Positions 1,470 through 11,978 of a DNA stretch of 13,326 nucleotides are shown here, piece after piece. Below the pieces are notes generated by a model, which was not told where the DNA came from, ran no database searches, and saw only the letters and a program-made list of their open reading frames with translations. Position 1 is the first letter of the stretch; every line of letters starts with the position of its first letter. The stretch lies in the UHGV virus genome UHGV-0203667; one strand, given 5' to 3'. The position numbers and the translations under genes are program-made. The DNA is from a virus.

Positions 1470-2016
1470 TTTAACCAGTATAGCTTGTTATCTGCAGACC
1501 ACAAAATAGGAATTTACATCTGATTAACATAATCTGTTAGCATGATCACTATTACCCACACAACAATAACCCCATGTAAGCCTCTTCAGGCAATTTATCG
1601 GCGTGTTGGTGTGAACAGTCTTTCATGTTCTTTATGAATGCATTGTCCTGTGTGAGGGAAGGATGGACTGCCTCAGGGGCCATACTTATGATGCCCGGTC
1701 AACATAGCTATTGATAAAATCAACGGGTGTTGATCTACATATTTCCCACACATGAGAGGAAATCAGAGCAAAGAGAGAGGAGAGAGGTTTGTTAGTCACA
1801 TATGGTGATTTGAGCTCATCTCAAACCTTCTACGAAGGCCTTTGCTAGTCAAAATAGGTCAATTGACGGCTAATACAGAGTAAAAAATCAGATGCAATCA
1901 CTCCCCACCTGTTGGGATTAACGGCCCCGAGTCAAGGCCTATGCAACGAGGGTATTTCCTACAACCCCTTTCAGTCATACTCAGGCACCACACCCCGGTA
2001 AATATTACCCTACTAC

Positions 2017-2328
2017 CCCGGAAGATTTCTCCGCACTACCTGTAAAATATTTTTACTACTAACACCCTCGAGACGAGGGCTATTTGCACGAGTTTAACGC
2101 TCTCGGGAAGAGCTATAGGCGATTCTACCTGTGAAGAATTTTCACACCTGTGTGTTTATACAGTCATACTTTCCTGTTTTGCAGTCATTGCACCCATGAT
2201 ACACAGCCTCTAACTACTGAAGATTTCTCACTACTTAACCACCATACCTACCCACACCCCTGAGAATTTCTCACCACTACTACCGAAGATTTCTCACTAG
2301 TACCCCTGAGAATTTCTCACTCTAATAG
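2017..2328 (+). repeat. Iteron-like array: six copies of core GA(A/G)(A/G)ATTTCTCAC, the last three exactly 23 bp apart
   Basis: Cores at 2021-2033 (degenerate), 2133-2145 (degenerate, GAAGAATTTTCAC), 2219-2231, 2262-2274, 2285-2297, 2308-2320; each preceded by a C-rich tract (CCCC/CTACC). TGAGAATTTCTCA is itself a 6-bp inverted repeat. Confidence 0.6.
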
Positions 2329-2438
2329 ATAAAGGAATAGATCAATAAAAAGACCTCCCCCCTAACCCCCAGGGGGAATGGGGAGGGATCAGAGAGTGGG
2401 GAAGGTTTTCTAAGGGAAAAGCTTAACCCACAAATGAA

Positions 2439-2467
2439 AGCCTAAAGAGCATGAGCGACTCTTTAGG
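2439..2467. other. Strong hairpin: 10-bp stem GCCTAAAGAG / CTCTTTAGGC with 9-nt loop
   Basis: Perfect complementarity read from sequence; no flanking U-tract on the plus strand. Confidence 0.4.
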
Positions 2468-2839
2468 CAATCTGTGTGGGGTGACAATGTATTCCATACA
2501 TGACACGTCACCCAATTGTGTGTGGGGAGCGTAGTGCTATAGCACGTAGCTTTATAGTGTGGAGTCCGGATAAGAGACTTCTGTTTCCAATCCGGACCGT
2601 TTAAGCGAGTGGTTTCTCGCGCGGGTGCACGCACACATATATAAAGGATACACTCATAAATCGAAAATAAGGCCCCTAAATGGCCTTCTGGCTGCATTAA
2701 CCTGTGTGAGTAGTGCAATTGCATTACCTGACCTCTAAATCGCGTTAGAATCGATTTTAGAGCGCTTAAGGCAAAAGTGCTCTCCCTCCCTTGTGGACTT
2801 GCTTGTACCTATAGCACACCTAAATGATAATAATTCTCA

Positions 2840-2868
2840 TTGACAATTGGTTGACAATATGATAAGAT
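2840..2868 (+). promoter_or_regulatory. Candidate sigma70 promoter P0 (TTGACA, 17-bp spacer, TAAGAT) within a tandem TTGACAAT duplication
   Basis: -35 TTGACA at 2840-2845, -10 TAAGAT at 2863-2868; a second TTGACAAT at 2851-2858; sits about 35 nt upstream of the RBS of the small ORF at 2904. Confidence 0.35.
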
Positions 2869-2903
2869 TATAAATAGGGGGAGAAACAGATCCGGAGGTC
2901 AAT

Positions 2904-3053
2904 GTGGAAATTACAGATGTAATAGCGATCATCAACCTGGCTGTACTGTGGTGCGGTGTTGCCTACATAGCCGGAGTAACTGCAATCGACAACCTTGAAG
3001 AAAAAATGATAGATAAATACAAAAAGATTGTTGACAATCTCGCAAATAGCTGA
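2904..3053 (+). CDS. Small hydrophobic peptide (49 aa, GTG start), predicted single transmembrane helix with charged C-terminus
   Basis: SD GGAGG at 2894-2898, 5-nt spacing to GTG 2904; translation (V/M)EITDVIAIINLAVLWCGVAYIAGVTAIDNLEEKMIDKYKKIVDNLANS; stop TGA 3051-3053. Below the length cutoff of the ORF track. Overlapped by the minus-strand ORF 2868-3317, judged spurious. Confidence 0.4.
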   Translation: MEITDVIAIINLAVLWCGVAYIAGVTAIDNLEEKMIDKYKKIVDNLANS

Positions 3054-3059
3054 TAAAAT
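3031..3059 (+). promoter_or_regulatory. Near-consensus sigma70 promoter P1: TTGACA, 17-bp spacer, TAAAAT, with an A-rich upstream tract
   Basis: -35 at 3031-3036, -10 at 3054-3059; spacer contains the recurrent motif TCTCGCAAA (3038-3046); A-rich 3001-3026 resembles an UP element. Confidence 0.6.
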
Positions 3060-3065
3060 ATAAAT

Positions 3066-3141
3066 CATAGGGTAATTCTCATCATAGTGAATTTCCTTAA
3101 ACAAAAATGCGGGGGCTTGTCTTAAGTTCCCGTTTCTTTTT
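3066..3141 (+). ncRNA. Candidate ~75-nt small RNA or attenuated leader transcript, from P1 to the hairpin/U-tract at 3110-3141
   Basis: Strong promoter followed about 45 nt downstream by a 9-bp stem CGGGGGCUU / AAGUUCCCG (two G-U pairs) and UUUCUUUUU; no ORF in between. Confidence 0.3.
3110..3141 (+). terminator. Intrinsic terminator/attenuator in the leader upstream of the 3183 gene (also the likely 3' end of the small-peptide transcript)
   Basis: Stem 3110-3118 / 3124-3132, loop GUCUU, U-tract 3133-3141. Confidence 0.5.
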
Positions 3142-3182
3142 AACCGTATATCATTCTGATTCGAATTATAGGAGGCCCCGTT

Positions 3183-3398
3183 ATGGCAAGCAACGGACCG
3201 ACTAGCCCCCTGGTTAGCTGGACTACTGATGAGATCGTCGAAAACGTGCTCAGCGGCAAGTTTTATAAAAATTCTGTTTATGCTTTTATCCGTCGTAATA
3301 AAGGAAAATATCCACACATTGAAGCGGCAATTTTAGAACTGAACCGTCTTCGCCTTGAGCGTGAGCTGGCTAAATACACCAACAACATTGATAAATAA
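3183..3398 (+). CDS. Small hypothetical protein (71 aa), possibly regulatory
   Basis: SD AGGAGG at 3170-3175 with 7-nt spacing to ATG 3183; stop TAA 3396-3398; first gene after P1 and the attenuator. Confidence 0.75.
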   Translation: MASNGPTSPLVSWTTDEIVENVLSGKFYKNSVYAFIRRNKGKYPHIEAAILELNRLRLERELAKYTNNIDK

Positions 3399-3411: not shown

Positions 3412-4308
3412 ATGGCAAGTAATTACGGGGAGGTTTTTAATCCCCATTTCGAACGCCTCATTCAGTACACTTTTGATAAACCAGTAGCAACAACAATTGC
3501 TAATAAAAAGACTGGAAAAACAAAAGAGCGATTTAATTTAGACCTGATAGAGGTAACAATTTATGGAAAAATGGCAGGTTTTCATTTAAACGGGCAAGAA
3601 ATATTTATCTCAGAGCAGACCTTAGCAAAAATATGTGGTGTGAGTGATAGAAAAATCATCGAATCTATCAAAACTCTGGAAAATGCCGGGCTTATTTCTA
3701 AAGAAAGCCGGAAAGGTATGTCTAACATTTACAAACTGTTAATTACTCCTTCTCAAATCTGCAAAATGTGTGATGAACAGAAGATAGAACCAATGAGTAA
3801 TGCAGGTGGTGAAGATAAACAGCCTCAGGAAGCCCCAAAACAAGCCACACAGCAAGCTAAAAAGGCTAAAGTAGTGCAATTGCCTACCCAAGACACTAAA
3901 GCGCCTCAAATTAACGCTGTTAGTGACAAGCCACGCCGGGGCCGTCCTGTGAAAGATGTAACCGATGGGGGCTGGATTGTCCTGGGTGAGAGTGAAGCTA
4001 AAGATAGAATGCGCTCACTGTGGGAAAGCAAATACAAAGGTTTAAATAAACGTTGCCCGATCCGTTTGTCAAAGATTCAGGAGGATTTTTACACCACAGA
4101 GGAGGTAATACGCCATAAAGGCAATAGAGACGGTGAAATCTGGAAACCGGAAGAATACTGGCATTTAACCAGACCTGTTTTTATTTTTGCAAATAAACTT
4201 ATTGGGATGGGATTTGAAATATTGTTAGATCAAACTTACGGAGATTATCCTGAAATATTGTGGAGAAATGTTAGAAAGAATAAAAAAGGCATTTTAGAGT
4301 TTAGATAA
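3412..4308 (+). CDS. Winged-HTH DNA-binding protein with AT-hook-like linker (KPRRGRPVK) and a C-terminal domain of unknown function; putative replication initiator or regulator
   Basis: ATG 3412 after a GGGGG SD (the track's upstream TTG at 3355 has no RBS); N-terminal wHTH-like segment FISEQTLAKICGVSDRKIIESIKTLENAGLISKE; low-complexity linker EDKQPQEAPKQATQQAKKAK; 299 aa. Confidence 0.8.
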   Translation: MASNYGEVFNPHFERLIQYTFDKPVATTIANKKTGKTKERFNLDLIEVTIYGKMAGFHLNGQEIFISEQTLAKICGVSDRKIIESIKTLENAGLISKESRKGMSNIYKLLITPSQICKMCDEQKIEPMSNAGGEDKQPQEAPKQATQQAKKAKVVQLPTQDTKAPQINAVSDKPRRGRPVKDVTDGGWIVLGESEAKDRMRSLWESKYKGLNKRCPIRLSKIQEDFYTTEEVIRHKGNRDGEIWKPEEYWHLTRPVFIFANKLIGMGFEILLDQTYGDYPEILWRNVRKNKKGILEFR

Positions 4309-4349: not shown

Positions 4350-4496
4350 ATGTATGGCGATTTTGATTATTACCTGGAAAAGGAAAAATATTTTGAAGAT
4401 GAACTATCACAACATTTTTCATATTGGGAAGAATATTGTGGTTGGTTAGCTGAAGATCCAGCAGATGAAGAAAATGATTCTGACATCCCTTATTAA
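4350..4496 (+). CDS. Small acidic, aromatic-rich protein (48 aa), hypothetical
   Basis: SD AAGGAA at 4337-4342 with 7-nt spacing to ATG 4350; MYGDFDYYLEKEKYFEDELSQHFSYWEEYCGWLAEDPADEENDSDIPY; below the track cutoff. Confidence 0.4.
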   Translation: MYGDFDYYLEKEKYFEDELSQHFSYWEEYCGWLAEDPADEENDSDIPY

Positions 4497-5683: not shown

Positions 5684-6118
5684 ATGAATATTGAAGAAAT
5701 GATAGTTGAATTCGAAGAGGGTGATTTCCTGGAAGAAGGGGAGTTTAAATACTCCCGTTTTAAACAGGCGTTATTTAGCAGCGATGATAAACCCCACGTT
5801 AGTGATCTTAACGACGATGATTTATGTCGCTGGGTATGCACCCGCTTATATGAAGATGGAAAGTATACAGGCCAAAACTTTCCAAATCTCTATTTCAAAG
5901 CACAAACATTTGAGGAAGGGCAAAGAGTGAAAAACCTGGTCGATAAAATGCTGTCAGCCGGATATTTGCATAAAGAATTATTAAATCCTAAAGCTGAAAG
6001 CAAGCGCCATTATATTTTTGTGTGGTCTGTGGGGGATAAGTGCCCACTGCATGGGAGTCCTTCCAGGACCTTAGCTAAAGCTAAGCCCGTTGGGTCTGTT
6101 AAGCGTAAAGGCAAATGA
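5684..6118 (+). CDS. Hypothetical acidic protein (144 aa), positioned like a tail assembly chaperone
   Basis: GAGAGGG SD with 7-nt spacing to ATG 5684 (the track start at 5678 is only 1 nt from the SD); acidic N-terminus; ends with basic tail KRKGK; 2 genes upstream of the tape measure gene. Confidence 0.7.
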   Translation: MNIEEMIVEFEEGDFLEEGEFKYSRFKQALFSSDDKPHVSDLNDDDLCRWVCTRLYEDGKYTGQNFPNLYFKAQTFEEGQRVKNLVDKMLSAGYLHKELLNPKAESKRHYIFVWSVGDKCPLHGSPSRTLAKAKPVGSVKRKGK

Positions 6119-6119
6119 T

Positions 6120-6305
6120 ATGAATACCTACGAAAAGATTTATCAAAAATTAAAAAGTGATAACAATGCTCCCGTCATCAAGGGCGGGGCTTCTTCCTCT
6201 GGTGACCTCTCAATCGAAGAGCTTGCGGAGAAATATAATATTGATAAAGAGGCCCTGAAAAGGGCTATTTCATTATCAAAATCTTTAAGACAGGGCGAGG
6301 TGTAA
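6120..6305 (+). CDS. Small hypothetical protein (61 aa) immediately upstream of the tape measure gene
   Basis: ATG 6120 directly after the stop of the previous gene (TGA 6116-6118); its frame is open from 6075, overlapping the previous gene's 3' end; stop 6303-6305, 3 nt before the tape-measure ATG. Confidence 0.55.
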   Translation: MNTYEKIYQKLKSDNNAPVIKGGASSSGDLSIEELAEKYNIDKEALKRAISLSKSLRQGEV

Positions 6306-6308
6306 GAG

Positions 6309-8411
6309 ATGGCAATGAAGGAAGTCGCCAGACTAACAAACGTTATTTACTGGGACTCTGATAAATCCTCCTGGCGAAAAGAAGTTAAGCGCTTGGAGGA
6401 TTATAAAAAATCCTGGAAGAAAGCTACCGACGATATAGCTAAAGCGGATTTTAAATCTAATCAGGCTGTGCTCAGAACACAAAGAACACGCGCTAAGGTG
6501 GAAGAGCAGATCGCCAGAGCACAGAAGAAACAACGTGCTCAGGCTGTCAGCCGTCTGACCGGGGGCAATAATCCGGAGCTCTCCTCTATGCGCAAGTTCT
6601 ATCAGCAGCAAGCCAGAGAGGCCGCCAGACAACAAAAACTGTTAGATCGTAGTGTTGGAGATGTTCAGCACAGAAAAGCACGTGTAGGGGCCAACAGTGC
6701 ACGAATCAGCAGCATGTTTGATGGCTCCCTGGTTGCTCAGTTCCAATCCAGAATTCAAAGAGTTAATGCTGATTATGCTAAAGGGGCTATTAACCTGCAG
6801 ACCTATAATCAGAAAATGGCCCGACTCAGATCTGAAATGAAGATGGCAACAGCAGAGGCCGGAAAATTTCAGAGCAAACTGGATAGAGTTGCGATCACAG
6901 GATCTAAGCTGCATGACAACCTGGGGAAACTAAATTCTACTTTAGGCAAGATAGCTATTGGCCTTACTGCCGCTGGCTGGGGTGTTCAGCGTGCTGTTAG
7001 TGGTGCTATGGGTAGCCTTGCAGATCGCAACAGTGCCTACTTCGGTTTGATGGCACAGAACAAGGATGATAAAGCCAAGACTGATCAGCAGATGGCCTAC
7101 GTCAAAAGAATCTCTTATGACTACGGGATGGATCAGCGTGAGACCGAAGGCGGTTTTATGCGCTTTGCTGCAGCCACACCGAGCATAGAAGAGAAAGATA
7201 AACAGGCTCTTTTTGAGGCTATGGCTATTAAAGGTCGCTCAGTGGGTGCTACCGCAGACCAACAGAACAGGGCTATCGTTGCACTAGGGCAAATATATAG
7301 CAAGGGCGGTCGGGTGTATGCGGAAGAGCTTAAGGGCCAACTTTCTGAAGCCCTGGCAGGTTCTCAGGTAGATTTCACTAAGGCCGCTATCGATGCCGGA
7401 GTCATCAAGAAAGAGGAAGAATTTAATAAAGCCCTTGAAGATGGCAAGATCACCATGGATAAGCTTCTCCCTTCTTTGGTGAAAATCTGGTCTGCAGCCA
7501 AGAATACGAAAGCCTTTGCTGAATCCATGAAACAGCCAGAAGTAGCAATGCAGCGCATGAAAAACAGCTTTAACGAGCTGGCGATTCAGTTTATGGGTGT
7601 TGTGGATCCTGCCGATGGCGTTGTTAGCTTATCTGAATCTCTGATCTCCATCTTCGAAGACCTCACCACTGATATGGACGGCAGCGGGAGCGCGGCAAAA
7701 CAGTTTGGTGAAGCAGTCGGTGCTGCCATGCGGGAGATCATGTATTGGGTAGGCTTCGCTAAGGGATATATCGAGGTCAAGGCTAAAGAGTTCGGCATGA
7801 CCGGATCAGAGGTTGGCGAGCTTATCGGGAAACTAGTAGTCGGCTTAGCTGGTCTGAAAGTTATTACCACACTGCTTTCCCCTCTAACCGGATTTGTTTC
7901 ACTTGTCACCCAACTGATAGCCTTGTTAGGTAAAATCCCTGGTATGAGCAAGCTTATGGCATCTGCCTCAGGTGGAACGGCAACAGGAGCAGCAGTTATC
8001 AGTGCAGGCTCTAACGCTGAAAGAAGCTTCATTGATGGCAAGACGCAGGAAATGAGTAAGGAGAACTCAAAACAGGGTGCTTTGTTTGAGCTGGGAAGAT
8101 TTGTCAGCAATGCTGGCGCACTGTTCACACCTGGCGGTGATACTGGTCCTTTGTTCGATCAGGTCAAAGGCTGGTTTAATAAAGGGCCAACATTGACAGT
8201 AGACACTGGCATCAGACCAACACCAACGGGTGGCATAGCTATCCAGAATGGTGGATATCAACCAGTCCAAGTAAATGTAGCCCCACAAGGTGAGATTTCC
8301 GGCAAATGGGAGATAACCATCGATGAGGGGGGAATTGCCAGGGTGATCCAGAAGGAAGTCAGCGATCAGTTGGATTGGAAAGCCACACAGGAATCTAACC
8401 AGCTTTTCTAA
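6309..8411 (+). CDS. Phage tail tape measure protein (700 aa)
   Basis: SD GAGGTG with 7-nt spacing; charged coiled-coil-like N-terminus; motif ALGQIYSKGGRVYAEELKGQLSEALAGSQ, recalled as the conserved tape-measure motif; central hydrophobic segment (LIGKLVVGLAGLKVITTLLSPLTGFVSLVTQLIALLG); Gly-rich C-terminal part. Confidence 0.8.
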   Translation: MAMKEVARLTNVIYWDSDKSSWRKEVKRLEDYKKSWKKATDDIAKADFKSNQAVLRTQRTRAKVEEQIARAQKKQRAQAVSRLTGGNNPELSSMRKFYQQQAREAARQQKLLDRSVGDVQHRKARVGANSARISSMFDGSLVAQFQSRIQRVNADYAKGAINLQTYNQKMARLRSEMKMATAEAGKFQSKLDRVAITGSKLHDNLGKLNSTLGKIAIGLTAAGWGVQRAVSGAMGSLADRNSAYFGLMAQNKDDKAKTDQQMAYVKRISYDYGMDQRETEGGFMRFAAATPSIEEKDKQALFEAMAIKGRSVGATADQQNRAIVALGQIYSKGGRVYAEELKGQLSEALAGSQVDFTKAAIDAGVIKKEEEFNKALEDGKITMDKLLPSLVKIWSAAKNTKAFAESMKQPEVAMQRMKNSFNELAIQFMGVVDPADGVVSLSESLISIFEDLTTDMDGSGSAAKQFGEAVGAAMREIMYWVGFAKGYIEVKAKEFGMTGSEVGELIGKLVVGLAGLKVITTLLSPLTGFVSLVTQLIALLGKIPGMSKLMASASGGTATGAAVISAGSNAERSFIDGKTQEMSKENSKQGALFELGRFVSNAGALFTPGGDTGPLFDQVKGWFNKGPTLTVDTGIRPTPTGGIAIQNGGYQPVQVNVAPQGEISGKWEITIDEGGIARVIQKEVSDQLDWKATQESNQLF

Positions 8412-8913: not shown

Positions 8914-9372
8914 TCAGCCTCTCCCCACATTTGACCAGTATTTGATTGCACCGATCAAATCATCATAGTGGCGCATTGCATCATTGAAGCCTTTATAGCT
9001 TGCCCATTGTGGGGAAACCTTGTTGTTGCTGAATTGCCCACTAATCAGGATAGTCTCCAGAATGTCGGCGTATCGCTTGCCAATTCGCTTCCTGACGGCC
9101 TCAGAGCTCCCACCCTTTACGATTGCATTAATCAGGGCTTTTGTGTGTCTCAGGCTCTCATAGAGCATTGCAGCGTGGGCAGATTCCATAAAGGAGCGCT
9201 TAGGCAGATCACCCCACCCCTCAGAATGAATTGCTGCCAATGTGGCGTAATTCAGGCCGCTATAGTGTTTCCCGTCATCCCAGCCAACCGCTACACCTTC
9301 CATCTGTGAGAGCTCTTTATGCAGCTTATCCATCATGCGCTTGTCTATGGTGCAACGGACTTTCGGACTCAT
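8914..9372 (-). CDS. Hypothetical phage virion morphogenesis / head-tail joining protein (152 aa); family not verified
   Basis: Last gene of the leftward structural operon; start ATG overlaps the stop of the upstream gene (ATGA), suggesting translational coupling. Confidence 0.7.
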   Translation of the reverse strand: MSPKVRCTIDKRMMDKLHKELSQMEGVAVGWDDGKHYSGLNYATLAAIHSEGWGDLPKRSFMESAHAAMLYESLRHTKALINAIVKGGSSEAVRKRIGKRYADILETILISGQFSNNKVSPQWASYKGFNDAMRHYDDLIGAIKYWSNVGRG

Positions 9373-10181
9373 TTGTTGATCTCCGTGATGTCATCAAGCA
9401 ACATGTTGGCCTTATCAATCATCGTTTCGTGGAACTCATTCGACACGACAGACTTATCACCTGCTGCAATCTTTCCCGCTGCCTCTCCCTGTGCATATTC
9501 CCCGCGATGCTTAGCCCTGGTTGATTTCGTAGCAGCATTGCCAGCGTTACTACCCTCTTTAGCACTGTTAACAGCACCCTTTTGCTGTGTTTTATTCACC
9601 TTCTTACTGTTAGTGAAAACTCCGGCATTTTCGACCATCTTCACCTTGAAGGTGCGGAATTCTTCAAAAGTGCAATCAATAGTGATGCAGTCGCCAGAGG
9701 AAGAGCTACGCTTAACTTCACATTTCGTCATGATGAAGTTCTCAAGGAGTCCGACATCTTCACCCACCAGGCTGATAATCTGGCGCTTGTCTCTCATTTC
9801 CATAAGTGCCTGAACAGCGGCAGCAGGGCGCATAGATTCACGGGGATTATCTGGATCAGTGTTCCGGTCGATGTAGTTCTCTTTCCGGATGATATGAGGG
9901 GAAGAGGTAATAATACCCGTAAAGCTGACAGATTTATCTTTAATGACGGCATGGTCTGACATGGTGGTGCCATCCTCGACCGCATAGCTCGATTTCTCAA
10001 CAGGGAACGAATAGCTGACATCAGAGATAGAGTCAAAGAAGATAGCCACATTATCGGTATAGTTGAAGCCATCCATCATATTTTTGTTTTGTGAATATCC
10101 CCCACACATAACAGTGAATGCAGGAGATCTCGACTCAGCTTGTTTTGCAGCTGTCAGAGCATCACTAGCCATATTAAACAT
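9369..10181 (-). CDS. Hypothetical phage structural protein (270 aa) with Lys/Ala/Gly-rich low-complexity C-terminal half
   Basis: In the head operon downstream of the major capsid gene; GGAGG lies 1 nt before ATG 10181 and 10 nt before the in-frame ATG 10172, so the true start may be 10172. Confidence 0.7.
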   Translation of the reverse strand: MFNMASDALTAAKQAESRSPAFTVMCGGYSQNKNMMDGFNYTDNVAIFFDSISDVSYSFPVEKSSYAVEDGTTMSDHAVIKDKSVSFTGIITSSPHIIRKENYIDRNTDPDNPRESMRPAAAVQALMEMRDKRQIISLVGEDVGLLENFIMTKCEVKRSSSSGDCITIDCTFEEFRTFKVKMVENAGVFTNSKKVNKTQQKGAVNSAKEGSNAGNAATKSTRAKHRGEYAQGEAAGKIAAGDKSVVSNEFHETMIDKANMLLDDITEINK

Positions 10182-10587: not shown

Positions 10588-11631
10588 TTATTTAGCCTTG
10601 GCTTTTGCCAGAGCAGCGGCGGCGGTGTTTTTAACACTCACTTTAACCACCACCTCGGGCATCATATTCATAAATGCGTATGAGCTCTCGCAAAAGACCT
10701 CGCGCTTAGCTCTTGAATCTTGCATATACATGAAAGCTTCACGTGCAGCGCCGTTTGCCAGCTGCAGATTGCGAGCGCAAGGGCCAAAAAATTGAGTATA
10801 AACACCCATATCGCCCAGTGCATAAGGCTGGAATTGTGGGACCAGATAAGCAGTATTCTCTGGCAGACTATCCATTTGCACCACACGCAGGGCTAAGCCC
10901 GGAATGCGGAAGGTCGGGAAGCCCGGCAGAATATCCTCAGGGAACATCAGACCTTTGTCGGTAATGTTCTGATTGCCGAACAACAGCACTTTACGAAGCA
11001 GCTCGTCAGTCTGAATTGCAGCAAAGAGTTCAGCACGGCAGAACAGGGTGAAACCACGCAGGGCACGAACGACACCACGCTGTTTAACCTTGCTCAGTGC
11101 AACCAGGTCCTGCAGCTGTTTAAGGATATCTTGAGCTAGATCCACTTCAGAGGTGGACTGTTCTACTCCCAGCAGTTCGCACACATTCAGTTCTTTACCC
11201 TTGGTGAGGATAATTTTGTTCTCAAAGAGAGCAAGCTGGCGTGCTTCTTCGTGGGTCTGGCGTAAGCCTTCGCCAAGCTGAATAACACGACGAGCGGTTA
11301 CAGACTCTAAATTCTCTTCGGAATCTTTGCCCGGAACACGGATACCTTGCCAGTCTGACGGGAATATGGCCGAGCTGGCGGCTGTAAAGGCCATGTCGCC
11401 CGTGCCCGTTTCACGCTCATCTGCGGTAATGGTAGCCATCTGTTCACCGTAGCGCGGATACTGACCGAAAGCGGTTTGTTTCACCCTGCGAACTTTGTCG
11501 TACTCAAATTTGAACGTCGAAGAATAGACGGTAGTATTAAACACGTTCATTGCTGAAATAATCTGGTTATCCAGCGGGATATCTTTAATCAGACCACACA
11601 GATCGCGAACTTCGAATTCTTTCTTAGCCAT
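10588..11631 (-). CDS. Major capsid protein, lambda gpE-like (347 aa)
   Basis: Perfect SD AAGGAGG 6 nt upstream of ATG 11631 (the track's longer N-terminal extension is discounted); size about 340 aa; segments recalled as resembling lambda gpE (RRVIQLGEGLRQTHEEARQLA ~ RRRIIMQNMRDEELAIAQVEE; C-terminal REAFMYMQDS...PEVVVKV ~ AREFTMIQSAP...DEFVSV); preceded by a decoration-sized gene. Confidence 0.7.
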   Translation of the reverse strand: MAKKEFEVRDLCGLIKDIPLDNQIISAMNVFNTTVYSSTFKFEYDKVRRVKQTAFGQYPRYGEQMATITADERETGTGDMAFTAASSAIFPSDWQGIRVPGKDSEENLESVTARRVIQLGEGLRQTHEEARQLALFENKIILTKGKELNVCELLGVEQSTSEVDLAQDILKQLQDLVALSKVKQRGVVRALRGFTLFCRAELFAAIQTDELLRKVLLFGNQNITDKGLMFPEDILPGFPTFRIPGLALRVVQMDSLPENTAYLVPQFQPYALGDMGVYTQFFGPCARNLQLANGAAREAFMYMQDSRAKREVFCESSYAFMNMMPEVVVKVSVKNTAAAALAKAKAK

Positions 11632-11642
11632 TTTCAACCTCC

Positions 11643-11978
11643 TTATTGTGCAACACGCAAATCGCCATTGCTGGCAGCAACAACAGCGGCTAAGCCGTCT
11701 TTGTCCACATAGGCCGGATTGATGTAGCAACCTTTGTTCGCAACAACGATAAAGGAATCACCAACTTCAGCACGTTCTACAACCAGCAGCGGAGTTTTAT
11801 CGGTGTGCGTTGCTTTAACGAAGGTCTCAACCTCGCCAGCCTCAGTCACCACAACAACAGTGCCAGCCGGAATCTCAGCCTTAACTTTGTTTTTAACTTC
11901 AACGTCGCGAATACTAAATTGCTCATCTGCGGCGTATGAAATGATGTGTCCGCGTGTGCGGATAGTCATATCTCTCAT
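11643..11978 (-). CDS. Head decoration-like protein (111 aa), first gene of the head operon
   Basis: SD AGGTGA 5 nt upstream of ATG 11978; size and position immediately upstream of the major capsid gene match the lambda gpD arrangement; no sequence-level similarity to gpD confirmed. Confidence 0.6.
   Translation of the reverse strand: MRDMTIRTRGHIISYAADEQFSIRDVEVKNKVKAEIPAGTVVVVTEAGEVETFVKATHTDKTPLLVVERAEVGDSFIVVANKGCYINPAYVDKDGLAAVVAASNGDLRVAQ

Follow-up and report, generated by a model that had tools for sequence, protein, structure and literature searches.

The stretch of DNA analysed in the present work, referred to throughout as the window, is 13,326 nucleotides long and carries ~2.4 kb of non-coding DNA (532-2900), within which lies an array of short phased repeats; it also carries the gene for a 298-aa protein, genes for two HTH proteins besides, and a set of phage structural genes (Table 1). 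Neither a terminase nor a portal gene was found among the genes of the element, the window contains no tRNA or tmRNA gene, and a search of Rfam, both at the gathering cut-off and with E up to 1, returned nothing relevant. When the window was compared with a plasmid collection, five plasmids were found to match it at 91-93% identity, four of which are E. coli plasmids of 13.2-13.7 kb that are matched along their full length, and to judge from its sequence the window is with near certainty an entire circular replicon of ~13.3 kb, an E. coli plasmid with phage structural genes. The fifth match (L009, NZ_CP043822.1, 39,610 bp) consists of three head-to-tail copies of the element, which differ slightly from each other and in the first of which several genes are broken; the record is a real multimer or else an artefact of assembly. 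All five PLSDB records are typed as non-mobilizable, with nothing further (MOB-suite, as given by PLSDB).

Homologues of the 3412-4308 protein fall into 100 clusters, nearly all of them on 13.3-14.4-kb contigs of E. coli, Shigella and E. albertii, and relatives of the element are common in short-read assemblies. The sample of relatives was enlarged by a metagenome DNA-anchor scan, which contributed L011, L018 and L022, and by the contigs that encode eleven full-length variants of the 3412-4308 protein. Deposited phages gave no match to the window in a Megablast search, a DNA-anchor scan of viral contigs gave no relative, a protein-pattern scan of one genome per species gave no confirmed relative, a PDB sequence search found nothing, and no paper on the plasmid family or its protein accessions was found in the literature.

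Table 1. Coordinates of the features in the window.
Feature	Position	Strand	Evidence and remarks
Type-B-like foreign site CTGTTGGGA...TTTCCTACA	1909..1963	+	split by a ~35-bp insertion at 1920-1953
Type E foreign site CGGTAAATATTACC	1996..2009	+	first of three foreign units in 23-bp register, 1992-2060
Type D foreign site CGGAAGATTTCTCCG	2019..2033	+	intact; core search; the 2021 copy of the first-pass annotation
Type C foreign site CTGTAAAATATTTTTAC	2040..2056	+	identical to the r2 unit of type-C arrays
Type H site CTGTGAAGAATTTTCACA	2129..2146	+	TGTGAA/TTCACA inverted repeat; the 2133 copy of the first-pass annotation
r1, own-type (type A) candidate initiator site GAAGATTTCTCAC	2219..2231	+	exact match; 43 bp upstream of r2
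r2, own-type site GAGAATTTCTCAC	2262..2274	+	contains TGAGAA-T-TTCTCA; sequence, core search, Tandem Repeats Finder
r3, own-type site GAAGATTTCTCAC	2285..2297	+	23 bp after r2; core search, Tandem Repeats Finder
r4, own-type site GAGAATTTCTCAC	2308..2320	+	23 bp after r3; ends 1 bp before the AT-rich block
AT-rich block, candidate DNA-unwinding element	2322..2355	.	74% A+T, 34 bp; sequence, alignment, boundary in 30 elements
G/C-run palindrome TCCCCCCTAACCCCCAGGGGGAATGGGGAGGG	2356..2389	.	conserved in alignment; - strand also reads as a terminator-like hairpin
Hairpin-rich non-coding stretch, array to rep operon	2336..2735	.	folding z -4 to -6 in 200-nt windows
Conserved block directly right of array	2376..2455	.	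98-100% identity in 17 otherwise mosaic elements
Start of rightward rep operon	2840..3398	+	promoter-like sites 2840-2868, 3031-3059; 49-aa ORF 2905-3054; orf71 3183-3398
Candidate initiator gene, 298 aa	3412..4308	+	Pfam, PHROG, AF2 model, BFVD
Codons of predicted recognition helix, aa 79-91, DRKIIESIKTLEN	3646..3684	+	the part varying with array type
162-aa HTH protein	4588
Tape-measure gene	6309-8411
Tail-completion gene	8914-9372
Dit-like tail gene	9369-10181
Major capsid gene	10588-11730
86-aa HTH protein	13009

The repeat array is real. Its core, GARRATTTCTCAC, occurs without mismatch at four starts in the 13.3-kb window (2219, 2262, 2285 and 2308, all on the + strand) and with two mismatches at 2021 (GAAGATTTCTCCG) and 2133 (GAAGAATTTTCAC); beyond these six, the core is found with at most two mismatches at two more places. 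Over both strands, 11 matches to the core were observed where 1.36 are expected, and 0 of 200 dinucleotide shuffles contained 11 or more. The first-pass annotation had listed six core copies, and of these the four exact, cognate copies stand, while the copies at 2021 and 2133 represent two further classes of site (CGGARRATTTCTCCG and CTGTRAAGAATTTTCACA), of which the first is the main array of some relatives. The 23-bp periodicity that it had described for the last three copies was recovered both by the repeat search, in which the start-to-start spacings are 198, 43, 23 and 23 (43, 23 and 23 for the four exact copies), and by Tandem Repeats Finder (2256-2321, period 23, 2.9 copies). The C-rich tracts that it had placed before the cores are seen as the spacers ACCCC and ACTAC, and the internal dyad symmetry that it had noted in one variant extends to all four exact copies, each of which is a 6-1-6 palindrome; TGAGAA-T-TTCTCA, contained in r2, is a perfect one. 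Its description of the array as iteron-like is supported as far as the phasing is concerned, but the units are palindromes of the lambda-O kind rather than the asymmetric direct repeats of plasmid iterons. Sites of the element's own type are confined to this array and occur nowhere else in the window, and the r1 position is filled in all relatives. The motif is not a host-wide repeat, a case that the annotation had named as speaking against its reading: in 5,426 complete E. coli genomes, a 2.8-kb query containing it had 0 chromosomal matches and matched only 7 related plasmids. The DnaA box nearest to the array, a TTATCCACA-like site with at most one mismatch, is at 1552, over 650 bp away, and a search for IHF sites found none close to the array.

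The AT-rich block starts 1 bp after r4 and carries the hexamers AATAGA, AATAGA and AAAAGA, one every 12 bp; within it, CTAATAGATAAA is invariant in all relatives and in all array types. To the right of the block, the - strand of 2340-2870 has a folding z of -4.6, and a terminator scan of 2336-2735 places terminator-like hairpins on that strand at 2378-2356, 2468-2440 and 2687-2669, which suggests that leftward transcripts may end at the edge of the array; the stretch could also be a small RNA, a primer or an insulation of the origin. A consensus scan of 2130-2330 for promoters produced a single weak match (2141-2170, 9/12), which lies upstream of the four own-type repeats, and the nearest good promoter-like site to the array is the one at 2840-2868, 520 bp away. 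In the 49-aa ORF near the start of the rep operon, the variable sites are mostly those of one codon position. The cumulative GC skew is lowest at 2200-2600 and highest near 8400, the point at which the gene blocks converge; skew and gene orientation fit bidirectional replication from the array, the skew being confounded by gene orientation.

Other features of the non-coding DNA can be listed in their own right. The ~1 kb of non-coding DNA at 736-1775 is 93-100% identical among 17 otherwise mosaic elements and is more conserved than the genes; it was considered as a hidden gene or a structured RNA and rejected as either, having no codon periodicity, no folding signal and no Rfam match. A second array, of TATTTATCCCC-like units with an 11-bp period and 4.6 copies, lies at 561-611, immediately beyond the terminator of ORF 1-531; this array is among the few non-coding islands kept in the divergent L037 lineage, is constant across array types, and could be a bent-DNA or protein-binding site. 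The heptamer CCCACAY occurs in the window at 13 sites (1396-2526) compared to 2.8 expected, a count reached in 0 of 200 shuffles, with five rightward copies left of the last three repeats (one of them, at 2251, between r1 and r2) and two leftward copies right of the array; in rV5-like phage DNA its enrichment is only marginal. Repeats of CAGTCAT(A/T) at 2161-2188 and 1972-1981, spaced 21 bp apart and lying just upstream of r1, are conserved across types A, B and C and may bind a factor that is shared or comes from the host.

The 3412-4308 protein is predicted to have an N-terminal winged helix at aa ~10-125 and a C-terminal domain at aa 181-298, with a disordered linker between them. In the AF2 model the N-terminal domain has helices at 45-58, 68-75 and 79-91 and a wing at 95-109, and it is joined to a separate C-domain by a disordered linker (129-180), which carries an AT-hook (RGRP) and the invariant stretch QEAPKQA. 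Residues 47-95 match Pfam HTH_36 (PF13730) with 31.8 bits against a cut-off of 25. Of the 15 PHROG matches, 13, including the nine best, are replication initiators or helicase loaders, with E values for the initiator families of 1.3e-10 to 1e-5, and the single regulator family is matched with an E of 1.5e-3. The named structural matches in BFVD are phage replication initiators, some of which span both domains; the fold matches in the PDB are weak (E ~1e-2) and include RepA_N initiators, DnaD-N, and MarR/ArsR-type and TubR-like neighbours. The C-domain exists as three exchangeable alleles, for which a word-index search found nothing and which match no PHROG and no other family. No other initiator gene was found in the element with Pfam, NCBIfam or PHROG.

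Several further ORFs of the family touch on this protein. Downstream of rep, at 4350-4496 (+) of the window, lies a 48-aa acidic ORF that ends in ...DENDSDIPY, and an odd initiator-like protein encoded at 2183-3094 of the relative L007 ends in ...NDSAIPY. The C-terminal tip of E. coli SSB is DDDIPF, and by analogy the two protein ends may mimic the SSB tail and recruit host replication proteins. About half of the relatives, the window not being among them, have an extra winged-helix ORF of 165-172 aa between orf71 and rep, with the helix RPNAVRAIKKLE... and weak matches to initiator PHROGs (L018 12882-13379 on the - strand, L023 2858-3358, L027, L030, L035 and L042); in L007, the N-domain of this extra ORF is fused to the shared linker and replaces the normal initiator.

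The motif search in related elements for which the first-pass annotation had called found the array at the homologous place in 30 of them, with the same spacing (43-44, 23 and 23) and with its end at the invariant CTAATAGATAAA. The sequence of the repeat is not constant among the relatives; it falls into seven types, A to G, all of which are inverted repeats with an A/T centre. The repeat is CTGARRATTTCTCAC in type A, which is that of the window, CCTGTTGGAATTTCCCACAGG in type B, CTGTMAAAATATTTTAC in type C, CCGGARRATTTCTCCGG in type D, CGGTAAATATTTCCG in type E, GGTAAAAATTACCG in type F and ATATGCKGGAATTTCCCRCATAT in type G. Type D is the main array of L004, L027 and L028, and type E that of L005, L007, L009, L040 and L041.

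In 30 of 31 elements, the array type agrees with the class of the recognition helix in the 3412-4308 protein. Helix class GVSDRKIIESIKTLE is paired with array A (6 elements), LA[NT]QLRKDRGKIVSAIKSLE with array B (4), DVSRPTVINSIKSLE and DFSRPTIIKAIKSLV with array C (7 between them), GVSDRKIRDSIKSLE with array D (3), DATEKTVRSAIKTLE with array E (4), G[WL]TPKTVRTAI[HY]SLE with array F (4) and LATQLRKDRGKIASAIKSLE with array G (2). The pairing persists in proteins whose remainder is no more than 58% identical and in those that carry another C-domain allele. The exception is L007, a complete plasmid that has a type-E array without a type-E initiator. The finest contrast is that between types A and D, which differ by one base per half-site (CTGA as opposed to CGGA) and whose N-domains are ~95% identical, the helix reading RKIIESIKT in the one and RKIRDSIKS in the other; a change of Ile to Arg alongside a change of T to G would be chemically sensible.

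In order to measure this association, pairwise protein identity was compared between pairs of elements of the same array type and pairs of different type, and the separation was expressed as an AUC. It reaches 0.96 for the winged-helix N-domain of the 3412-4308 protein, compared to 0.66 for its C-domain, 0.62 for the 86-aa HTH protein, 0.63 for the 162-aa protein, 0.79 for orf71 and 0.55 for orf147. For all five of these proteins or domains, 100% identical copies occur in elements of different array type, which excludes them as the specificity partner of the array. The first-pass annotation had named the 3412-4308 protein as the nearest candidate binder, with the 4588 and 13009 proteins as alternatives, and the comparison upholds the former and eliminates the latter two.

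If the association were produced by hitch-hiking, it would be expected to extend to the DNA between the array and the gene, and the linkage control therefore used 2322-3180, ~850 bp of the ~1.1 kb that separates the two, divided into six consecutive segments. This DNA is variable yet unassociated with array type (AUC 0.66, 0.55, 0.36, 0.42, 0.46 and 0.58), and hitch-hiking is thereby ruled out as the source of the co-variation. The persistence of the match between array and N-domain, with recombining DNA between them, argues instead for selection on a physical partnership. The co-variation thus points to the 3412-4308 protein as the binder of the array; as a pattern in natural sequences it indicates a specific protein-DNA partnership and is silent on the role which that partnership plays.

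The role that is probable is that of an origin: the four repeats (2219-2320) and the AT-rich block beside them (2322-2355) would constitute the vegetative or plasmid origin of the ~13.3-kb element. In the mechanism proposed here, dimers of the 298-aa protein would bind each 13-15-bp dyad through the N-terminal winged helix, and four bound dimers, spaced 23 bp apart except for the first, at 43 bp, would form a nucleoprotein complex wrapped in the manner of the lambda O-some. Next, the invariant AT-rich tract beside the array, with its three AATAGA-like repeats at 12-bp intervals, would melt, and the linker with its AT-hook and the C-terminal domain would recruit the helicase and the replisome. 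Physical binding, melting, helicase loading and the equation of array types with incompatibility groups are all inferred steps in this scheme. An origin is favoured over a regulatory site because the AT-rich block abuts r4, the PHROG and BFVD matches of the protein are initiators, the consensus scan placed no promoter-like site over the four own-type repeats, and the element has no second initiator gene. Against it must be set that the candidate initiator has no sequence homology to lambda O or Rep_3 and that its fold matches in the PDB are weak, that there is no DnaA box close to the array, that L007 is mismatched, and that the conserved stretch at 736-1775 could hold another origin.

One of the closest likenesses is to the lambda origin, whose 18-bp dyad iterons, with starts 20, 24 and 23 bp apart, lead into an AT-rich tract that contains AAAAGA repeats (PMC7466680 and the lambda reference sequence). 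Both systems have four inverted-repeat iterons, at intervals of 43, 23 and 23 bp in the window compared to 20, 24 and 23 in lambda, and in both an AT-rich tract with AAAAGA-like repeats stands directly after the last iteron. A palindrome comes next, as it does in lambda. Origin specificity is set in lambda O by its N-terminal DNA-binding domain, which a flexible linker joins to a separate C-terminal domain, and in the AF2 model the candidate initiator has the same three parts. In both systems, relatives differ in matched initiator/iteron specificity, and here, as far as natural co-variation can tell, it is the N-domain and not the C-domain that tracks the site type (AUC 0.96 as opposed to 0.66). 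There are also differences. The lambda origin lies inside the initiator gene, whereas here 1.1 kb lies between the last repeat, which ends at 2320, and the gene downstream of it, which begins at 3412; the sites are 13-15 bp long (in types B and G they reach 23 bp) instead of 18-19 bp; and the first site is set 43 bp apart. An hhalign comparison of the family profile with lambda O gave a probability of 0.08% (E 0.63), and there is no match to Pfam Phage_rep_O. The system resembles ori-lambda/O in its predicted function but not in sequence, and it does not belong there by descent.

Iteron plasmids (F RepE, R6K pi, pPS10 RepA and RK2 TrfA, and P1 RepA with incA) likewise have phased sites beside an AT-rich unwinding element, an initiator encoded in cis on a small autonomous replicon and extra sites outside the origin, and in them, as would be expected here, specificity sets incompatibility. 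Their iterons, however, are asymmetric direct repeats of 17-22 bp that are bound by monomers, whereas the sites in all seven types of the present family are palindromes, which imply binding by dimers; in addition, they have an adjacent DnaA box, and the extra sites here are of foreign specificity and not the element's own. Neither Pfam nor NCBIfam gives a Rep_3 or WH1-WH2 match, and the element is not a Rep_3-type iteron plasmid. The third comparison is with the HTH_36/DnaD-like replisome organisers (PHROG 270, 678, 391 and 186), which the protein resembles in having an N-domain that lies above the HTH_36 threshold and matches these PHROGs with E values of 1e-10 to 1e-7, and in its structural neighbours, among them RepA_N (staphylococcal 4PQL and 5KBJ), DnaD-N and models of phage replication initiators, some of which align over two domains. 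This likeness is remote (12-28% identity, PDB E ~1e-2), and the C-domain of the present family, with its three exchangeable alleles, is without a family match.

Co-variation of the observed kind fits any cognate binding array equally well, and it is therefore necessary to weigh other uses of such an array. One is that the array binds the 3412-4308 protein for the control of copy number or incompatibility, by titration or handcuffing as in P1 incA, while replication starts elsewhere, for example in 736-1775, which is 93-100% conserved and holds three DnaA-box-like sites; the extra single sites outside the main array would also suit such a control function. A separate origin would, however, be one without initiator sites, own-type sites being found nowhere else in the window, and the direct contact of the array with an invariant AT-rich tract and a palindrome is the canonical layout of an origin, which together make an array for control alone unlikely.

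Just as unlikely is that the protein is a repressor and the array its set of operators, forming an immunity-like module that has diversified as in the heteroimmune lambdoid phages. The lambda operators are 17-bp dyads about 23-24 bp apart, and dyads spaced by ~23 bp, together with matched polymorphism of protein and site, typify such modules also; the N-domain, moreover, is a generic winged helix with structural neighbours of the MarR/ArsR type. What speaks against operators is that the sole promoter-like match near the repeats is weak and lies upstream of those of the element's own type, the good one being 520 bp away, and that a promoter embedded in the array could not be kept when the array sequence is wholly replaced between types. 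The matches of the protein in PHROG and BFVD are initiators, with one regulator family at an E of 1.5e-3, its long linker and second domain are as in replisome organisers, and its assignment as a repressor would leave the element without any initiator.

A role as partition centromere, with a winged-helix adaptor bound to it as in tubC/TubR or parC/ParR, would account for phased repeats and for the TubR-like fold neighbour, but no gene for an NTPase of the ParA, ParM or TubZ type was found among the ORFs tested in the 13.3-kb element and the protein matches initiators, so that this reading is very improbable. That the repeats are chance or a decaying duplication without function, for which the general frequency of short repeats and nothing more can be adduced, may practically be dismissed, as the shuffles never reach the observed count, the layout and boundary are kept in 30 elements while the sequence is swapped as a set, and array and protein domain vary together despite the unlinked DNA between them.

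Sites of types other than the element's own are a separate feature of the locus. The three foreign units in 1992-2060 stand in the order E, D, C in a 23-bp register, and single foreign sites lie upstream of the own array in nearly all relatives, often on the same grid of 22-23 bp and in the rough order B, D, E, H, (F', C, E), then the own array. Type H is the main array of no sampled element. It was considered as a CRP site and rejected, as the spacing of TGTGA-N7-TCACA is wrong when judged against the CRP consensus. Hairpin cassettes of ~35 bp (e.g. CCCTCGAGACGAGGG with a T-rich tail) are inserted in the variable region, at 2061-2126 and 1920-1953, the latter splitting the type-B site, and they recur at 97-100% identity in other intergenic places and orientations in relatives. 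From their arrangement, the foreign sites may be scars of in-register recombination between arrays, a reading favoured by the split type-B site, or they may be active decoys.

Copies of the initiator that consist of the N-domain only also occur in the family. Three relatives encode such paralogues, of 121-133 aa, just upstream of rep (L011 3397-3798 on the - strand, L034 1326-1712 and L002 6882-7247); they end right after KMCDEQGI, the motif that closes the domain, and their specificity class differs from that of the array in the same element. The helix class of the L002 paralogue, LSRKSVKNAIQSLKN, is absent from all full-length initiators sampled. A further copy lies in a 40-kb contig of an rV5-like Vequintavirus (L046, Logan SRR32969907), where a 760-bp segment at 5758-6517 is 99.5% identical to a type-C plasmid, encodes orf71 and an initiator that consists of N-domain and linker and lacks the C-domain, and stands in place of ~1.6 kb of phage genes; the flanks are 99% (left) and 94% (right) identical to phage JLBYU08. 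An insertion of this type is absent from 50,697 deposited phage genomes. As read from this one assembly, the insert is direct evidence of contact between phage and plasmid, and the protein that it encodes is a candidate dominant-negative blocker of the origin.

The kept foreign sites, the foreign-type domain-only genes and the phage-captured type-C domain point to a view of the locus as a battleground over replication specificity, in which foreign sites and domain-only proteins would block or titrate rival origins or would serve a helper phage as a weapon against its satellite. We hold this to be possible and on balance doubtful; under it, such pressure would have driven the diversification into at least seven types. 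With regard to the element itself, its capsid and tape-measure proteins are ~25% identical to their counterparts in rV5-like phages (Vequintavirinae), and from its gene content it looks like an undescribed plasmid-borne phage satellite. The likeness of these two proteins, the L046 insert and the domain-only paralogues together suggest that rV5-like phages have a satellite in this plasmid and that replication specificity is contested.

The present analysis assigns a predicted origin and initiator to a plasmid family that is widespread in E. coli, Shigella and E. albertii. With its seven site types and eight helix classes, the family constitutes a natural experiment on the DNA recognition code of winged-helix proteins, within which the A/D pair is near-isogenic, its members being about three helix residues and one base per half-site apart. 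The array types also predict incompatibility groups that would be readable from sequence, and if the foreign sites and domain-only copies are active, they would represent a new mode of replication interference among mobile elements and phages.
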